A DNA stretch of 64,000 nucleotides from Escherichia coli (GTDB lineage: Bacteria > Pseudomonadota > Gammaproteobacteria > Enterobacterales > Enterobacteriaceae): NCBI RefSeq assembly GCF_013122565.1, contig NZ_CP053258.1; one strand, written 5' to 3'. Positions 1 to 11,608 of the stretch are shown here, in pieces; position 1 is the stretch's first letter, and the number at the start of each line of letters is the position of its first letter. The position numbers and the translations under genes were made by a program. A model generated the notes under the pieces. The model was not told where the DNA came from. It ran no database searches and worked only from the letters and a program-made list of their open reading frames with translations.

Positions 1-286
1 TAACGAGATTGAAGATGTCGTCATGCAGCATCCTGGCGTACAAGAAGTCGCGGCTGTTGGCGTACCTTCCGGCTCCAGTGGTGAAGCGGTAAAAATCTTT
101 GTAGTGAAAAAAGATCCATCGCTTACCGAAGAGTCACTGGTGACTTTTTGCCGCCGTCAGCTCACGGGCTACAAAGTACCGAAGCTGGTGGAGTTTCGTG
201 ATGAGTTACCGAAATCTAACGTCGGAAAAATTTTGCGACGAGAATTACGTGACGAAGCGCGCGGCAAAGTGGACAATAAAGCCTGA
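1..286 (+). CDS. fadD: Long-chain-fatty-acid--CoA ligase, C-terminal end (5-prime truncated by window edge)
   Basis: Open frame from window start; C-terminus ...[20 protein letters not shown] typical of acyl-CoA synthetase; followed by rnd as in E. coli. Confidence 0.85.
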
Positions 287-304
287 GCGTTAAGTCAGTC
301 GTCA

Positions 305-331
305 GACGCCGGTTAATCCGGCGTTTTTTTT
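305..331 (+). terminator. Intrinsic terminator after fadD
   Basis: GC stem acgccgg/ccggcgt with 5-nt loop followed by T8 run. Confidence 0.6.
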
Positions 332-355: not shown

Positions 356-1483
356 TTGAATTACCAAATGATTACCACGGACGATGCGCTGGCTTCTTTG
401 TGTGAAGCCGTCCGTGCCTTTCCGGCGATAGCCCTGGATACTGAATTTGTTCGTACGCGCACTTATTACCCGCAGCTGGGGTTGATTCAACTTTTCGATG
501 GCGAGCATCTGGCGCTAATTGATCCTCTCGGGATCACCGACTGGTCACCGCTGAAAGCGATCCTGCGCGATCCGTCCATCACAAAATTTCTCCATGCAGG
601 CAGTGAAGATCTGGAAGTGTTCCTCAATGTCTTTGGCGAATTACCACAACCCTTGATTGACACGCAAATCCTTGCTGCCTTCTGCGGACGCCCGATGTCA
701 TGGGGTTTCGCTTCCATGGTGGAAGAGTATTCCGGCGTTACGCTGGACAAGAGTGAATCGCGCACCGACTGGCTGGCCAGACCGCTGACCGAACGTCAGT
801 GTGAATACGCAGCGGCGGATGTCTGGTATCTGTTACCGATCACCGCCAAGCTTATGGTAGAAACGGAGGCCTCCGGCTGGCTACCTGCGGCGCTGGATGA
901 ATGCCGCCTGATGCAAATGCGTCGTCAGGAAGTCGTTGCGCCGGAAGATGCCTGGCGTGATATCACCAATGCCTGGCAGTTACGCACACGCCAACTGGCC
1001 TGTCTGCAACTGTTAGCCGACTGGCGACTGCGCAAGGCGCGAGAGCGCGATCTGGCGGTGAACTTTGTCGTGCGTGAAGAGCATTTGTGGTCGGTAGCGC
1101 GTTATATGCCGGGAAGTTTAGGCGAACTGGACAGCCTGGGTTTATCCGGTAGCGAAATCCGCTTTCACGGTAAAACGCTGCTGGCGCTGGTGGAAAAAGC
1201 GCAGACATTGCCGGAAGAGGCCTTACCGCAGCCGATGCTTAACCTGATGGACATGCCGGGTTATCGTAAAGCGTTTAAAGCGATTAAGTCGCTGATTACT
1301 GACGTGAGCGAAACGCACAAGATCAGCGCCGAATTGCTGGCATCGCGTCGGCAAATCAACCAACTGCTGAACTGGCACTGGAAACTGAAACCGCAGCACA
1401 ATTTGCCGGAGCTGATTTCCGGCTGGCGTGGTGAGCTGATGGCGGAAGCATTACACAATTTATTGCAGGAATATCCGCAGTAA
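356..1483 (+). CDS. rnd: Ribonuclease D
   Basis: 375-aa ORF, DEDDy exonuclease plus HRDC features; starts at TTG, consistent with the known UUG initiation of rnd. Confidence 0.92.
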   Translation: MNYQMITTDDALASLCEAVRAFPAIALDTEFVRTRTYYPQLGLIQLFDGEHLALIDPLGITDWSPLKAILRDPSITKFLHAGSEDLEVFLNVFGELPQPLIDTQILAAFCGRPMSWGFASMVEEYSGVTLDKSESRTDWLARPLTERQCEYAAADVWYLLPITAKLMVETEASGWLPAALDECRLMQMRRQEVVAPEDAWRDITNAWQLRTRQLACLQLLADWRLRKARERDLAVNFVVREEHLWSVARYMPGSLGELDSLGLSGSEIRFHGKTLLALVEKAQTLPEEALPQPMLNLMDMPGYRKAFKAIKSLITDVSETHKISAELLASRRQINQLLNWHWKLKPQHNLPELISGWRGELMAEALHNLLQEYPQ

Positions 1484-1489
1484 AATCTT

Positions 1490-1532
1490 CCGAAGCCGGA
1501 CTGGGCGCGCTCAGCGCCACATCCGGCTTCGG
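1490..1532. terminator. GC-rich stem-loop between convergent rnd and yeaX remnant
   Basis: ccgaagccgga ... tccggcttcgg inverted repeat with internal GC hairpin; no clean T-run. Confidence 0.35.
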
Positions 1533-1536
1533 CAAA

Positions 1537-2016
1537 CTACAAATCCAACACCAGGCGTTTACCCTTCGCACGCGAACAACAGATCAACATACTTTGCTGG
1601 CTGGCACGCTCTTCATCGCTAAAATACTGATCCCGATGGTCAGCTTCACCTTCCAGTATTGCCGTTTCGCAGGTTCCGCATACCCCTTCACGACATAAAC
1701 ATTCCACTTTCGCGGCTTTATTATTTTCAATAACCTGCAAAATAGTCATCTCTTCCGGCACCACAAACTCTTTTCCGGAACGGGCAAGCACCAGGGTAAA
1801 TGCATCGCCGGTTTTGTCTTCGATAGCAAATTGCTCAAAGTGCAGCGTATCGGCGGCGATGTCCAGACGCGCAGCTTCACTTCTTACCGCTTCAATTAGC
1901 GCCTCGGGGCCACAGGTATAAACGTGTGTGCCAGGTTCGATATCCGCCATTGACATCCTCCACGTCCTGAAGGACGAGGAGGATGTCAATGGCAGGGTAT
2001 GAGTTGTATATTGCAT
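1537..2016 (-). pseudogene. yeaX: 3-prime remnant of yeaX-type oxidoreductase (end of NAD-binding domain plus 2Fe-2S ferredoxin domain); N-terminal two thirds missing
   Basis: 159-aa ORF with CGP motif and CxxGxCGTC...C ferredoxin motif; full-length class is about 320 aa; N-terminus of the ORF is translated palindrome (PLTSSSSFRTWRMSM). Confidence 0.6.
1947..1992. repeat. 46-bp near-perfect palindrome (22-bp arms, 1 mismatch, 2-nt centre)
   Basis: ccattgacatcctccacgtcct-ga-aggacgaggaggatgtcaatgg read directly and checked against its reverse complement. Confidence 0.85.
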
Positions 2017-2138
2017 TTAACGAATTAATTATTTTTGTGTTATATAAATTAAACAATTAAGAATTCGGAAAGCCATAAAACACGAAACGGAAACAATAAA
2101 AGGTGAAATGACGCAGGTTATTAACTGCAAAGAACGAA

Positions 2139-2163
2139 TAAAAAAACCGCGTCAGTGACGCGG
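2139..2163 (-). terminator. Intrinsic terminator downstream of dmlA
   Basis: On minus strand: stem ccgcgtc/gacgcgg followed by T7. Confidence 0.6.
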
Positions 2164-2184
2164 TTCAAATAAACTGGTTTGACC

Positions 2185-3270
2185 TTAACGCAAAATAATT
2201 TTGCAAATCGCGTCGGCAACCTGTGGCGTGGTGGCACTGCCTTTCATATCCGGTGTTTTCGGCCCGTGAGCAATCACTTCTTCAATCGCTGCCAGAATAC
2301 CGTTATGCGCTTGCTGGAAACGCTCATCGCCATTGCCGAGAAAATCGAGCATCATTGCACCGGCCCAAATTGTGGCGATAGGGTTAGCAATATTTTTCCC
2401 GTAGATATCCGGCGCGGAACCGTGGACAGGCTCGAAGAGCGACGGGAAAGTGCGTTCCGGATTCAGGTTGGCGGATGGGGCAATGCCAATGGTGCCGGTG
2501 CAGGCCGGGCCAAGATCGGAAAGGATATCGCCAAACAAATTGGACGCCACTACCACATCGAAGCGTTCCGGCTGCATCACAAAACGCGCGCAGAGAATAT
2601 CAATATGCTGCTTGTCCCACCGGATCTCCGGATAATTCTCGGCCATTGCTTCCACTCGCTCATCCCAGTACGGCATGCTGATGGCTAAACCGTTCGATTT
2701 AGTGGCAGAAGTTAGTGTCTTACGTGGGCGGCTTTGCGCAAGTTCGAAGGCATAACGCAAAATGCGATCGACACCACGACGCGTAAATACCGATTCCTGA
2801 ATGACGACTTCATGCTCTGTACCTTCATTCACTCTACCGCCGAGCGAGGAATATTCGCCTTCGGTGTTTTCCCTGACCACGTAAAAATCGATGTCGCCAG
2901 GCTGTTTTCCCGCCAGCGGGCAGGGAACGCCAGGAAAGAGACGAACCGGGCGCAGATTGACGTACTGGTCGAATTCACGACGAAATTTCAGCAGCGAACC
3001 CCACAACGAAATATGGTCCGGAACGGTATCCGGCCAGCCGACGGCACCAAAATAGATGGCGTCGAAACGGCTAAGTTGCTCATGCCAGTCGTCCGGCATC
3101 ATTTTACCGTGATGGCTGTAATACTCGCAGCTCGCCCACTCCATTTGCTCAAAACTCAAGGCGAAGCCCCAGCGCTCAGCGGCAGCCTGTAACACGCGAA
3201 TCCCTTCAGGAAGGACTTCTTTGCCAATCCCGTCTCCCGGGATCGCAGCAATACGCATCGTTTTCATCAT
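2185..3270 (-). CDS. dmlA: D-malate / tartrate dehydrogenase (decarboxylating), isocitrate-isopropylmalate DH family
   Basis: 361-aa ORF; divergent from LysR regulator as at K-12 yeaU-yeaT. Confidence 0.9.
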   Translation of the reverse strand: MMKTMRIAAIPGDGIGKEVLPEGIRVLQAAAERWGFALSFEQMEWASCEYYSHHGKMMPDDWHEQLSRFDAIYFGAVGWPDTVPDHISLWGSLLKFRREFDQYVNLRPVRLFPGVPCPLAGKQPGDIDFYVVRENTEGEYSSLGGRVNEGTEHEVVIQESVFTRRGVDRILRYAFELAQSRPRKTLTSATKSNGLAISMPYWDERVEAMAENYPEIRWDKQHIDILCARFVMQPERFDVVVASNLFGDILSDLGPACTGTIGIAPSANLNPERTFPSLFEPVHGSAPDIYGKNIANPIATIWAGAMMLDFLGNGDERFQQAHNGILAAIEEVIAHGPKTPDMKGSATTPQVADAICKIILR

Positions 3271-3372
3271 TGGGTTCTCACTTCCTGACCATCAAAATTG
3301 ACAACATCACCATCCTATAATTGACTGAAAAGGAATTAATCCCCGTAACTGGTGAAACATAAAACACGAATC

Positions 3373-4296
3373 ATGAATAATTTACCGCTGCTGAATGATT
3401 TGCGCGTCTTTATGCTGGTGGCTCGCCGGGCTGGTTTTGCCGCCGTGGCGGAAGAACTGGGCGTTTCACCGGCGTTCGTCAGCAAGCGCATCGCCTTGCT
3501 GGAGCAAACGCTAAACGTGGTGTTGTTACACCGCACCACCCGCCGCGTCACCATTACCGAAGAAGGAGAGCGGATTTATGAATGGGCGCAGCGGATTTTG
3601 CAGGATGTCGGTCAGATGATGGACGAACTTTCTGACGTGCGTCAGGTGCCACAGGGGATGCTGCGTATTATCAGCAGCTTTGGTTTTGGACGACAGGTGG
3701 TGGCTCCGGCGTTATCAGCGCTGGCGAAGGCGTATCCGCAACTGGAATTACGTTTTGATGTGGAAGACCGGCTGGTCGATTTGGTCAATGAAGGTGTCGA
3801 TCTCGATATTCGCATTGGCGATGACATCGCCCCTAATTTAATCGCCCGCAAACTGGCGACCAATTACCGCATTCTCTGCGCGTCGCCGGAATTTATTGCG
3901 CAACATGGCGCGCCGAAACATTTAACCGATCTTTCTGCATTGCCGTGCCTGGTCATTAAAGAGCGCGATCATCCTTTTGGTGTCTGGCAATTACGCAATA
4001 AAGAAGGCCACCATGCGATTAAAGTCACCGGCCCACTGTCGTCTAATCATGGAGAAATTGTCCATCAGTGGTGTCTCGATGGGCAGGGGATTGCTCTGCG
4101 CTCCTGGTGGGATGTTAGCGAAAACATTGCCAGTGGTCATTTAGTGCAAGTGCTACCGGAATATTACCAGCCAGCGAACGTCTGGGCCGTTTATGTTTCA
4201 AGGCTGGCGACGTCAGCGAAAGTGCGGATAACGGTAGAATTTTTACGCCAGTATTTTGCCGAGCACTACCCGAATTTTTCACTGGAGCATGCCTGA
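3373..4296 (+). CDS. dmlR: LysR-family transcriptional regulator
   Basis: 307 aa from MNNLPLLNDLRVF; N-terminal HTH, LysR substrate domain. Confidence 0.9.
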   Translation: MNNLPLLNDLRVFMLVARRAGFAAVAEELGVSPAFVSKRIALLEQTLNVVLLHRTTRRVTITEEGERIYEWAQRILQDVGQMMDELSDVRQVPQGMLRIISSFGFGRQVVAPALSALAKAYPQLELRFDVEDRLVDLVNEGVDLDIRIGDDIAPNLIARKLATNYRILCASPEFIAQHGAPKHLTDLSALPCLVIKERDHPFGVWQLRNKEGHHAIKVTGPLSSNHGEIVHQWCLDGQGIALRSWWDVSENIASGHLVQVLPEYYQPANVWAVYVSRLATSAKVRITVEFLRQYFAEHYPNFSLEHA

Positions 4297-4353
4297 TTAA
4301 TGATTCAATTATCGGGTTGATATCAGGTTAAAACCTGATTTTCTCCTTTCTAA

Positions 4354-5061
<708 letters not shown>

Positions 5062-5144
5062 TGCTTTCAGCCCGCGTTGTCGCGGGCTTCCCATCTGTAA
5101 TTCTCCCTGATTCTTCTTTGATACGGTGCTAAAAAGTAACCAAT

Positions 5145-5167
5145 AAATGGTATTTAAAATGCAAATT
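5145..5167 (+). promoter_or_regulatory. Putative NsrR operator upstream of yeaR-yoaG
   Basis: aaatggtatttaaaatgcaaatt contains the TGCATTTTAAATAC core of the NsrR inverted repeat (on reverse complement). Confidence 0.45.
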
Positions 5168-5233
5168 ATCAGGCGTACCCTGAAACGGCTGGAATAAACC
5201 GTTTTCAGCGCATTCACCGAAGGAGGGAAAAGG

Positions 5234-5593
5234 ATGCTGCAAATCCCACAGAATTATATTCATACGCGCTCAACGCCTTTCTGGAATAAACAAACTGCGC
5301 CTGCCGGAATATTCGAACGTCATCTTGATAAAGGAACGCGCCCGGGGGTTTACCCACGCCTTTCCGTTATGCATGGGGCGGTCAAATATCTCGGCTACGC
5401 TGATGAACACAGTGCAGAGCCTGATCTGGTGATCCTTATCGAAGCGGGGCAGTTTGCGGTGTTCCCTCCAGAAAAGTGGCACAACATTGAAGCCATGACT
5501 GACGATACTTATTTCAACATTGACTTCTTCGTTGCTCCTGAAGTCCTGATGGAAGGCGCGCAACAACGGAAAGTCATTCATAACGGGAAATGA
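5234..5593 (+). CDS. yeaR: DUF1971 protein
   Basis: 119-aa ORF, position matches yeaR. Confidence 0.85.
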   Translation: MLQIPQNYIHTRSTPFWNKQTAPAGIFERHLDKGTRPGVYPRLSVMHGAVKYLGYADEHSAEPDLVILIEAGQFAVFPPEKWHNIEAMTDDTYFNIDFFVAPEVLMEGAQQRKVIHNGK

Positions 5594-6441: not shown

Positions 6442-7467
6442 TCAGGAATGTAGCGCTGGATGCGCGACAAAAGGTGTTTTCTGTTTGTGTTTTTTCTCCT
6501 GATACATCGCGATATCGGCAGCATGCAGGGCACTGTCTGCATCGGTTGTTTCAGGATCGACTTCTACTATGCCAAGACTGGCACCAGGATAATACAAATC
6601 AACATCACCTAAGTGATATTCTCCGCGTATTTGCTGCTGAATACGTTCTCGCAGCGACGAAATATCCGCATTCTCGTTGTTCAGTGAAACAACCAAAAAC
6701 TCATCACCGCCGAGACGACCAATAACTTCGCCATTTTGCTGGAGCGTATTAAGGCGCTCGCCAACCTGAATGAGGAACAAATCACCACTATTATGACCAA
6801 AACGATCGTTGATTAATTTGAAGTTATCCAGATCGATAAACGCGATCATTATCTTATGGTTAAGATGCCGGGCGAGGGAAAACAGCGTCGTCAGATTTTC
6901 AAAAATCGCCCGCCGATTCGGTAGCCCGGTTAACGAGTCGGTATACGATTGCGCAATCAGCGCAGCATTGGCTTCGCGCAGCTGTTCAACCAACGCCTCT
7001 TTTTGAATATATTGTGCAATCAGTCCGGCGAATAACTGTAAAACCTGTTCCGCGCGTTCACTCCACTGGCGCTTCTCACTGCTGGCGGCGCAAAGCGTGC
7101 CATAGAATGATCCATCCGGTAAGTGAATTGGCGTGCTCAGAAATGTGGTGATGCCAAGATTGCGTGCCGCAATACAGTCGCCCCAACGGTCAGGGACTTC
7201 ATCGCTGAAAAAGCAGTTTTCATCAATGGCGCGTTTGCATAACGAGTAATCCCACGAGACGGTAAAATTCTCCGGGATGTGCATTTTCTGGCTGTTACGG
7301 GCAAACATAATATGCTGCAGGCGCGCTTCGACATCCACTTTGGTCAGGTAGGTTGATTCCATATCAGTGACCATTTCCAGCATCTCCAGAAGCTGTCGGA
7401 CCAGACTTTCCAGTGACTGTTCTTTGGCAAGGGATTGCGAGACGCGGTCGATGATCTGATCTGACAC
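6442..7467 (-). CDS. dgcP: Diguanylate cyclase (GAF-like N-domain plus GGDEF)
   Basis: GGDEF motif (RLGGDEF); 341 aa from GTG start preceded by ggag. Confidence 0.88.
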   Translation of the reverse strand: MSDQIIDRVSQSLAKEQSLESLVRQLLEMLEMVTDMESTYLTKVDVEARLQHIMFARNSQKMHIPENFTVSWDYSLCKRAIDENCFFSDEVPDRWGDCIAARNLGITTFLSTPIHLPDGSFYGTLCAASSEKRQWSERAEQVLQLFAGLIAQYIQKEALVEQLREANAALIAQSYTDSLTGLPNRRAIFENLTTLFSLARHLNHKIMIAFIDLDNFKLINDRFGHNSGDLFLIQVGERLNTLQQNGEVIGRLGGDEFLVVSLNNENADISSLRERIQQQIRGEYHLGDVDLYYPGASLGIVEVDPETTDADSALHAADIAMYQEKKHKQKTPFVAHPALHS

Positions 7468-7649
7468 GAAACAACTCCAGGATACGGCGGGTAAATGCTG
7501 ATTATTTAATCTTTGCAGGCATGATAAAACATCATCAACAAAGATGAAACAATGCGTAATATGATTTGAGTGAATGTAATAAAAATAGTGCTGCAAAACA
7601 AAACGATACCGCGATACTCTAAGTCTGGATAAATATGTGAGATCAATAA

Positions 7650-7904
7650 ATGAAAATTATCAGTTTTGTTCTGCCTTGCTTGCTGGTCCTGGCTGGTTGT
7701 TCAACCCCTTCTCAGCCAGAAGCACCCAAACCGCCGCAGATTGGTATGGCAAATCCGGCGTCGGTCTATTGCCAGCAGAAGGGCGGGACGCTCATTCCAG
7801 TGCGGACAGCGCAAGGGGTCAGCAACAATTGCAAATTACCGGGCGGTGAAACGATTGATGAATGGGCATTGTGGCGACGGGACCATCCGGCTGGTGAAAA
7901 ATAA
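7650..7904 (+). CDS. yoaF: Lipoprotein DUF333
   Basis: 84 aa, signal peptide with lipobox LAGC. Confidence 0.85.
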   Translation: MKIISFVLPCLLVLAGCSTPSQPEAPKPPQIGMANPASVYCQQKGGTLIPVRTAQGVSNNCKLPGGETIDEWALWRRDHPAGEK

Positions 7905-10830: not shown

Positions 10831-10999
10831 CGTGGTTTCCTTGCCAAAAAATAATAAGCCTGCTTACTTTACGCTTGCTGCAGGAAGGAAGTAGAAAATC
10901 TTTACGTTTTTTGCATAAAAAATCAGGCGAACTGTCATCAAACTGCCATTTGTGCACGCTAACAATAACGTGAAAACAGCTATCTCCCGGGGGCATGCT

Positions 11000-11104
11000 A
11001 TGAACGATCAAATGTTCGTCGAGACACTGATTATCACGTCATCGTTTTTTGCCATTGCGGTTGTGCTGGTTTTGTCCGTTCTGCTTATTGAACGGACAGG
11101 CTAG
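11000..11104 (+). CDS. yoaI: 34-aa small membrane protein
   Basis: Translation [34 protein letters not shown]; not in ORF track. Confidence 0.7.
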
Positions 11105-11608
11105 TTACGCAGTGCGGCGGAAATTGATCAGTTCTGGTTGCGCAATGCGCAAATAATCCGCGGTTTTCAAAATAACGGATTTATCCAGCATGCCTGCATT
11201 GAAGGCGATTTCATCAAATCGTTCGAAGAGTAGGGGGTCGGCAACCAGTTTGAGTTTTGGATGGAAGCTGAAAGGGGGGATCGCGCCGAAGACACAGCCT
11301 GTGAGTTCATCGACTTCCGCCGGGCTGGCCAACGAAGCGCGTAATCCGCCTATATGGCTGGCGAGTTGGCTCAGATCGGCCTGTTGATCGGCAGCGAGGA
11401 TCGCCAGAACATGTTGATTTACGCCATTGCCTTTGACTTTACATACCAGTGCCTTAGCCCCCTGGCCTAAAGCGGTGCCACGAATTTCTGACACCGCTTC
11501 GCATTTACCTACCGCTTCATGGGTAACGACGCGGAAGTCAGCACCTTCTTGTGATAATAAAGCGATTAACCGCTGATGCGTCACGCTTCCTTTAGCCATT
11601 TCAGTCAT
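11105..11608 (-). CDS. yeaK: YbaK/ProX-type aminoacyl-tRNA deacylase
   Basis: 167-aa ORF. Confidence 0.88.
   Translation of the reverse strand: MTEMAKGSVTHQRLIALLSQEGADFRVVTHEAVGKCEAVSEIRGTALGQGAKALVCKVKGNGVNQHVLAILAADQQADLSQLASHIGGLRASLASPAEVDELTGCVFGAIPPFSFHPKLKLVADPLLFERFDEIAFNAGMLDKSVILKTADYLRIAQPELINFRRTA

Follow-up and report, generated by a model that had tools for sequence, protein, structure and literature searches.

A palindromic remnant of IS609-type right ends at a deletion of the carnitine oxygenase genes yeaV, yeaW and yeaX in Escherichia coli

The locus considered here lies between rnd and dmlA in a 64,000-nucleotide stretch of Escherichia coli DNA (NCBI RefSeq assembly GCF_013122565.1, contig NZ_CP053258.1), which is called the window below. 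The window opens with the end of fadD, after which come rnd, dmlA, dmlR and leuE, and 701 bp separate the end of rnd (1483) from the end of dmlA (2185). According to the annotation of the K-12 strain DH10B, the same interval holds yeaX, yeaW and yeaV, coding for the reductase subunit of carnitine monooxygenase, its oxygenase subunit and a BCCT transporter, respectively. Two of these genes are missing from the window and the third is reduced to its 3' part, which adjoins a short filler that stems from an insertion sequence (IS) of the IS609 type, namely from its right end (RE). The features on which our argument rests are the following.

1537–1949, minus strand: 3' remnant of yeaX, made up of codons 186–321 with the stop codon and two bases from codon 185; collinear with the yeaX genes of K-12 and N96.
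1537–2016, minus strand: 159-aa open reading frame (ORF), in which 22 codons of filler and yeaV upstream sequence are fused to the yeaX remnant.
1949/1950: left junction, where the minus-strand RE, ending in ...GGAGGATGTCAA, abuts yeaX TGGCGGATATC.
1946–1993: full palindrome, with 23-nt arms (1946–1968 and 1971–1993) that are 96% complementary, and a 2-nt loop.
1950–1989: core of the palindrome, 40 bp that read as a double RE (TTGACATCC, hairpin, GGATGTCAA).
1990–1991: filler bases TG, between the RE tail and recognisable yeaV upstream sequence.
1992–2184, minus strand: retained part of the dmlA–yeaV intergenic region, 193 of 249 bp.

Pairwise BLAST aligns window positions 1300–1949 with positions 7001–7650 of a K-12 record (L001), that is, with rnd and the last 413 nt of yeaX, and positions 2038–2500 with 10904–11366 of the same record. 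Since K-12 yeaV carries a 5' truncation of its own, strain N96, having an intact yeaV of 536 aa, was preferred as the reference for the deletion. In K-12-type alleles, the yeaV start and sequence upstream of it have been deleted (L001 10880–10910; also L005, L007–L010, L012 and L014), and RefSeq lists their yeaV as a pseudogene missing the N-terminus, so the locus of the reference strain has decayed too. In N96 (L003), window positions 1300–1949 correspond to 920–1569 and positions 1992–2500 to 5001–5509, while the 3,431 bp in between (1570–5000) are replaced in the window by 42 bp of filler (1950–1991). The lost DNA consists of yeaX nt 1–553, the genes yeaW and yeaV in full, and the 56 bp that precede the start codon of yeaV. 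A preliminary description of the window had put the rnd–dmlA distance at about 700 bp, given the K-12 gene order, reported yeaV and yeaW as absent and yeaX as cut to its C-terminal ferredoxin part, and seen a translated palindrome in the N-terminus of the 159-aa ORF. The DH10B annotation, the alignments to K-12 and N96, and the make-up of the first 22 codons agree with all of this. The palindrome itself had been passed over as incidental, a view that we cannot share, because it is a scar of IS609-type RE and the key feature, one that hints at the origin of the deletion.

This palindrome reaches 4 nt into both flanks (GCCA and TGGC). Folded as DNA, it attains -25 to -26 kcal/mol, with z-scores of about -10.6 to -11.0 and none of 200 shuffles folding as well. 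The filler consists, in order, of a reverse-complement RE tail (TTGACATCC), one RE hairpin, an RE tail (GGATGTCAA) and TG. Window positions 1949–1980 match, at 30 of 32 nucleotides, the sequence adjoining the 3' end of insQ (tnpB) in the IS609 copy beside ydcO, which is present in most E. coli genomes. On the minus strand, the hairpin and its tail agree with the IS609 RE at 30 of 31 positions in strain IAI39 and at 29 of 31 in ETEC H10407, against 26–27 of 31 on the plus strand (26 for IAI39). Because the asymmetries of the hairpin match the RE best on the minus strand, the top strand of the original element was most likely the sense strand of yeaX. The filler as a whole thus represents two inverted right ends of an IS609-type element (IS200/IS605 family) that share a single hairpin.

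The structure of IS609 ends was read from six IS609-family copies in different contexts, namely chromosomal ones of ETEC H10407 and IAI39, plasmid-borne ones of Salmonella, Klebsiella and E. coli, and a truncated copy with the right end only, as well as from a 51-nt mini-element. With a caret marking the junction, all left ends have the form TTAT^CC(G/A)(G/A)TGCGCC...hairpin, and all right ends the form (GAAT or GGAT)-hairpin-AGGATGTCAA^flank, the terminus being ...GGAGGATGTCAA in six of six copies. The mini-IS609, composed of a left-end start, one hairpin and an RE tail, resides in prophage Sp5 of E. coli O157:H7 Sakai (L029, about 3010–3060), with TTAT directly before it on the top strand, and a related single-hairpin derivative occurs on an mcr-1 plasmid (L004 2501–2545). 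Both of these small derivatives lie a few hundred bp from hok/mok genes.

IS608 reportedly uses TTAC as its target and is cleaved at the right end after TCAA, about 10 nt past the hairpin. The RE of IS609 resembles that of IS608 in its imperfect subterminal hairpin, its tail of about 10 nt leading to TCAA and its junction 3' of a 4-nt target; RE of this type also form the 3' end of the TnpB guide RNA (omegaRNA). Judging from the junctions and from IS608 biochemistry, TnpA of IS609 would cleave and transfer strands at TTAT and TCAA. Compared with a real IS609 RE, the filler comes without tnpA, tnpB and a left end, and its reverse-complement tail stands where GAAT or GGAT should precede the hairpin; both of its strands are therefore RE-like, while neither has a normal RE 5' context. 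No left end of the CCGGTGCGCC... type was found in the 64-kb window, and no ORF in the 701-bp interval fits tnpA or tnpB. As a left end with its own hairpin and TTAT is lacking, the filler is a remnant rather than an element. The RE region gave weak, sub-threshold Rfam matches to HgcC, and the palindrome chance matches to miRNAs. Its interpretation as an intrinsic terminator was rejected, as there is no T-run on either strand and the terminator scan reports only the dmlA terminator at 2166–2144.

On the minus strand of the window, the RE tail GGATGTCAA is followed by TGGCGGATATC at the place where intact yeaX reads GCGCGATTAT^TGGCGGATATC. Just before this breakpoint, intact yeaX has GATTAT, with TTAT ending at nt 553. 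The 966-nt sense strand of yeaX contains six TTAT motifs, so a random breakpoint would fall at the edge of one with a probability of about 0.006. The RE cleavage site and the TTAT edge coincide to the base, as they would after an IS609 insertion into yeaX. At the upstream junction, the native sequence is AATTAT^TTGCAGGG in 14 of 14 intact alleles, and the window has GTCAA^TGGCAGGG. This junction lies 0–2 nt past one of the three TTAT motifs in the 249-bp intergenic region, a coincidence of about 4%. It has one mismatch, at position 1991: all 14 intact alleles have TT at the place of 1990–1991, directly after TTAT. Such a private T/G difference is unsurprising, because the adjoining stretch has 8 other unique substitutions. 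Chance similarity of the filler to IS609 was rejected on the strength of the boundary and TTAT coincidences. Overall, the deletion is real, its filler comes from an IS609-type RE, and the yeaX junction is shaped like a joint between RE and target made by TnpA.

Such evidence leads us to propose, with a probability of roughly 70%, that yeaV, yeaW and yeaX were inactivated by a recent, lineage-specific deletion of 3.43 kb mediated by an IS609-type element. In a first step, which is strongly supported, an IS609-like element would have entered yeaX on its sense strand, 3' to TTAT at nt 550–553. The resulting ...hairpin-GGATGTCAA^TGGCGGATATC joint, situated where the Y1 transposase TnpA would place the element, would be the one still present in the window, and the RE hairpin of the parental copy would read TCCTCGTCCTTCAGG(G/A)CGTGGA. 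In a second step, which we infer, a rearrangement centred on the hairpin would have removed the IS body, the 5' part of yeaX, yeaW, yeaV and the 56 bp, leaving an RE hairpin with a 9-nt RE tail on either side. The route that we favour begins with the insertion of another IS609 copy, inverted relative to the first, on the 3' side of the TTAT that precedes yeaV; the right ends of both copies would point outward, and slippage between the self-complementary hairpins of the inverted copies would then delete whatever lies between them and produce the tail–hairpin–tail arrangement. The two RE hairpins could act as short direct repeats at the foot of a long inverted repeat because each of them is nearly its own reverse complement. 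A two-copy route would explain why units of this kind (see below) end at the RE cleavage site on both strands, why their flanks follow TTAT and why a double left-end counterpart exists. Units that end at TCAA on both strands and have motif-free flanks are indeed what two RE–target joints would yield.

Several observations weigh against this scenario. A precursor with IS609 in yeaX or upstream of yeaV was found neither in 5,426 complete E. coli genomes nor in the JGI metagenomes, and an inverted IS609 pair was never seen. A tblastn search with InsQ against the 64-kb window gave no match, and the window contains neither an IS609 gene nor a further IS609 end. The role of TTAT as the IS609 target is itself suggested by the junctions and by analogy with IS608. 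As for the two-copy route, it needs two independent insertions 3.4 kb apart and a T-to-G change at 1991 relative to 14 of 14 intact alleles. Moreover, nearly the entire hairpin is of a single parental type, which means that any crossover would have to lie at its very edge.

We also considered a different course of events, in which a single IS609 copy sat in yeaX and the nascent plus strand, having copied the RE hairpin, folded back on itself. It would then have copied its own 5' side (GGATGTCAA and TGGC) and switched to the yeaV upstream sequence at a GC microhomology, so that the IS body and 3.4 kb were deleted in one replication error. One insertion would be enough, the parental asymmetry of the hairpin would be retained, as observed, and every base from 1946 to 1993, including TG at 1990–1991 and the GCCA/TGGC extension, would be accounted for without mutation. 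A replicative fold-back would also fit the excess of flank extensions of at least 3 nt among related palindromes (8, with about 1.6 expected). However, it does not predict that 87 of 103 family members extend by only 0–1 nt, and it leaves the TTAT beside the upstream junction as a coincidence of the order given above; TTAT also precedes the junctions of other units. All in all, we consider a fold-back, the main rival of the two-copy route, possible but rather unlikely.

A known parallel to the two-copy route that we prefer is the nearly precise excision reported for Tn10, in which a segment between inverted IS copies is lost via short repeats near their outer ends and a short palindrome of the two termini (about 50 bp) remains. 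The filler has the form of such a palindromic two-terminus remnant, and both of its junctions adjoin TTAT. In contrast to Tn10, IS609 elements lack terminal inverted repeats, the part of the "direct repeat" would be played by the self-complementary RE hairpin, and the inverted pair is hypothetical. The PATEs, said to be derivatives of IS200/IS605 elements resembling miniature inverted-repeat transposable elements (MITEs), share with the filler the nature of a short non-coding derivative of element end hairpins. PATEs, however, keep a left end by the target motif as well as a right end and could therefore be moved by TnpA, whereas the filler has two right ends, no left end and no retained target motif; a PATE/MITE identity was rejected accordingly. 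The double-RE unit looks like a dead-end product. REP/BIME sequences with their RAYT proteins came into question as short enterobacterial palindromes related to HUH Y1 transposases. They were rejected too, since the sequence differs, the copy number is low (hairpin-related places number a median of 3 per E. coli genome) and members of the family occur also in genes and at module junctions. REP elements carry a GTAG head, which the double-RE unit lacks.

The filler of the window belongs to a larger family of palindromes. A place covering at least 80% of the consensus 40-bp double-RE unit was found in 286 of the 5,426 E. coli genomes. The pattern TTGACATCCTCC-N14-18-GGAGGATGTCAA occurs in 18 IMG/VR phage contigs and at 104 loci in the representative genomes of 100,044 species, among them haloarchaea, Chlamydiae, cyanobacteria, Actinobacteria, Desulfovibrio, Legionella and many Proteobacteria; in viral contigs, the strict double-RE pattern had no match and matches came with the relaxed one. 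Members have the form TTGACATCC(T)CC, a covarying inner stem and GGAGGATGTCAA, measure about 40 bp and stand between unrelated flanks. The same architecture is seen in the window, in a P1-like plasmid (L027), a prophage (L028), a plasmid with a unit of the Yersinia pestis pPCP1 type (L030) and 122 further loci. Window positions 1950–1989 align without gaps to 73 other distinct 40-nt units, in which six of six variable inner-stem pairs covary (107 doubly changed cells, compared with 40.5 after shuffling, a value that none of 500 shuffles reached). The invariance of the outer 12 bp is due solely to the search pattern, which demanded these positions.

Units of this family usually stop exactly at the TCAA site on both strands. 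Among 103 of them, the palindrome extends into the flanks by 0, 1, 2, 3, 4, 5 and 23 nt in 67, 20, 8, 3, 3, 1 and 1 cases, respectively; extensions of at least 4 nt thus occur in 5 of 103, and the 4 nt of the window belong to the tail in which the excess mentioned above is found. No motif was detected in 247 family flanks, and for most units the extension into the flanks is close to what chance would give. A tnpB gene lies nearby at 1 of the 104 genome loci and in a few of the 18 phage contigs. Two phage contigs have a resident element whose true RE shares its hairpin variant with the solitary unit, which suggests that units derive from local elements.

Solitary units being this common, and tnpB so rarely near them, one could imagine that the palindrome of the window was ancestral, standing, for instance, upstream of yeaV, and that an unrelated spontaneous deletion later ended at its edge. 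Yet the breakpoint matches both the RE cleavage site and the yeaX TTAT to the base (about 0.006, as calculated above), and none of the intact loci examined has a palindrome at the upstream position. Hence, we find such a history very improbable.

Several members of the family seem to stand at sites where DNA has been lost or swapped, as at the yeaVWX deletion itself. P1-like plasmids of two lineages carry separate units just upstream of lydA (L027 3001–3040 and L164 2008–2047), at nearly the same spot and with different adjacent sequence. This spot may be a recurrent site of insertion or recombination. An empty P1-like allele reads TCTCTTAT^GCAACAT where a unit-bearing plasmid has GTCAA^GCAACAT, the right flank thus following TTAT; no empty allele was found for the left flank of this P1-like unit, nor for the unit of the A34 prophage. 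In the lambdoid prophages of A34 and O103:H2 12009, a unit comes right after the gene of a cI-like repressor (LexA family), and after the unit there is a relE/parE pair in one case and a restriction-modification system in the other (L028 3001–3040 and L167 2001–2040). Such an arrangement in two unrelated prophages points to a connection with the exchange of cargo. A prophage of strain MB46 harbours a further double-RE unit.

In Y. pestis pPCP1 and small pla/pst plasmids, a unit is located between a toxin-antitoxin (TA) pair of the RelE/ParE family and pla (L030 1790–1829), and the homology of the TA module between pPCP1 and E. coli plasmids ends at the edge of the unit. A TA-module allele reading TCTAAC^ATAA provides the other-strand TTAT, with one mismatch, for the left flank of the pPCP1-type unit. 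The mirror image of a double-RE unit also exists: E. coli plasmid NZ_CP148386.1 carries a double left-end palindrome, TTAT^CCAGTGCGCCGTAAAA-hairpin-ATATAAGGCGCACTGG^ATAA (L165 1501–1560).

Two further members deserve a comment. In plasmid NZ_CP059910.1 (L032 1999–2482), an ORF-less group II intron lies inside the left arm of a double-RE unit (Rfam group-II-D1D4-3, 96.9 bits; D1D4-1, 46.8 bits). Some group II introns home next to stem-loops, which this intron would fit. The extension of 23 nt into both flanks comes from the start of a Streptomyces sp. F001 contig (L133 1–86), and at such a contig end it could stem from a long palindrome of natural origin, from the end of a replicon or from faulty assembly.

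Keeping in mind the sites just described—the yeaVWX deletion, the post-repressor position in prophages, the region upstream of lydA and the TA–pla boundary of pPCP1—it is tempting to suppose that 40-bp double-RE palindromes form a distinct, uncatalogued class of IS200/IS605 by-products or active sites that mark or promote TnpA-dependent deletion and cargo exchange. We put this forward tentatively and regard it, in such a general form, as unlikely. On this view, the units could have kept the ability to bind TnpA, or TnpB together with a guide RNA. In the literature, our coverage of which was incomplete, neither double-RE palindromes nor the target of IS609 turned up, the texts retrieved being AMR surveys and lists of PCR primers; this is an absence of evidence only.

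Turning back to the deletion allele, its junction is present in none of the 5,426 complete RefSeq E. coli genomes, and no reference collinear with the window across the same 701-bp interval occurs among them; the two junctions had no match in either JGI metagenome scan. Over its first 25 kb, the window reaches an identity of 98.7% at best with any of these genomes, and several alleles among ten window proteins occur in one NCBI E. coli genome only. One Logan contig, derived from run SRR11451224, has the exact Rnd allele; over 7,483 bp, the junction among them, its identity to the window is 100%. This contig comes from another assembly pipeline, and the run is possibly the same as the sequencing data of the source genome itself. 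Because the contig is identical across the junction, the deletion allele is real and not an artefact of one pipeline.

An assembly chimera or an engineered deletion scar could still be imagined, given that fold-back palindromes can be sequencing artefacts and that none of the 5,426 complete genomes shares the allele. However, the junction is the same in a second assembly, even if possibly made from the same data, and the filler fits a natural sequence family with exact boundaries; it also bears no known resemblance to FRT, loxP or I-SceI scars. A non-biological origin therefore seems to us extremely improbable.

The deletion allele is known from a single strain or lineage. The preliminary description had called the deletion lineage-specific, which holds for this allele, found in the source genome and one run, and does not hold for the loss of yeaX in general, the gene being absent from 1,049 of the 5,426 genomes (about 19%). 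The B2 strain SE15, the one such genome examined, is without yeaXWV and most of dmlA and dmlR and has a patchwork of 20–170-nt remnants in their place (L031 5185–5440). There is no IS609 palindrome at the SE15 junction, and its loss is an independent, older and larger deletion with other breakpoints.

What is left of yeaX makes up the last 137 codons of the 159-aa ORF, corresponding to YeaX residues 185–321, with the junction turning the codon of L185 into ATG. Pfam finds a complete Fer2 domain at ORF residues 78–151 (E=8e-15), and for NAD_binding_1 and DmmA-like_N only C-terminal tails with weak scores. Reductases of the YeaX/CntB type combine flavin, NAD and 2Fe-2S parts in 321 aa, and full-length YeaX relatives carry all three domains; in the remnant, Fer2 alone is complete. 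The frame is open and shows 1–3 nt differences per 414 nt from most other alleles examined, which fits a recent event and is silent on function. A collection of 15 billion proteins contains neither the exact 159-aa nor the exact 139-aa sequence. The 137-aa form is there, and all ten places shown for it are frameshifted full-length yeaX loci, not the deletion allele; proteins of this length are thus fragments of frameshifted yeaX, not products of a short ferredoxin gene.

The complete Fer2 domain in an open, little-changed frame allows one to think of a functional small gene, coding for a 2Fe-2S ferredoxin of 137–159 aa and expressed from the retained yeaV promoter region, of which 193 bp are kept. 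The preliminary description, too, had suggested that the remnant may still be transcribed from the AT-rich region upstream of it. The palindrome supplies a GGAGG 6 nt upstream of the ATG at 1950–1948. In RNA, however, the very stable hairpin would bury this GGAGG and two ATG codons directly upstream of the retained yeaX sequence, while the ATG at 2016 has no recognisable ribosome-binding site. A simple scan detected no sigma-70-like promoter on the minus strand from the dmlA terminator to the junction, and the terminator (2166–2144) should isolate the remnant from dmlA read-through. The YeaW partner and the flavin/NAD half of YeaX are gone, an intact frame is to be expected anyway after a recent event, and the allele comes from a single strain. 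We thus find a functional small gene highly doubtful, and the surviving 137 yeaX codons are best described as a probable pseudogene fragment.

YeaWX reportedly converts carnitine to trimethylamine (TMA). With the oxygenase and the transporter missing, and the reductase deprived of its flavin/NAD half, this activity should be lost, and the strain should be without YeaWX-dependent conversion of carnitine to TMA.

The surroundings of the deletion contain the following features.

368–1483, plus strand: rnd (ribonuclease D), the intact left neighbour, an ORF annotated as rnd in matching E. coli records.
1490–1532: native inverted repeat between the convergent rnd and yeaX, with 19-nt arms that are 84% complementary.
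2144–2166, minus strand: intrinsic terminator of dmlA, a 10-bp stem followed by a T-run.
2185–3270, minus strand: dmlA, the intact right neighbour, identified as an ORF and by comparison with K-12.

The inverted repeat is found at the same place in K-12 and lies outside the rearrangement. To the right of the junction, 8 substitutions found in no other E. coli allele cluster at positions 1992–2061, and the first 70 nt are 88.6% identical, compared with 98.4% over the next 123 nt; the top match of positions 1992–2060 among the 5,426 genomes is 88.4%. Mutagenic repair, relaxed constraint or a foreign allele are possible reasons for this cluster. The exact DmlA protein of the source genome is very common in E. 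coli. The small RNA sroD is located at the 3' end of fadD (window 245–330; Rfam, 115 bits on the identical contig L025, 5878–5963), as expected for E. coli.

The deletion itself represents routine gene decay. With yeaVWX already lost in roughly one E. coli genome in five, an additional loss allele makes little difference. The type of scar and its breadth are what looks new. IS200/IS605 elements are described as precise in both excision and insertion and as leaving no footprints; in the present case, an IS609-type element seems to have marked a deletion with a recognisable signature of 40 bp. Hundreds of E. coli genomes, and plasmids including pPCP1, contain this signature, which extends to both domains of prokaryotes and in most cases has no IS in its vicinity. 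Should it turn out to be a reliable mark, it would raise the question of how a single-strand transposase, or the replication of a hairpin, yields right-end joints on both strands, and past rearrangements caused by IS605-family elements would be traceable long after the elements themselves have been lost.

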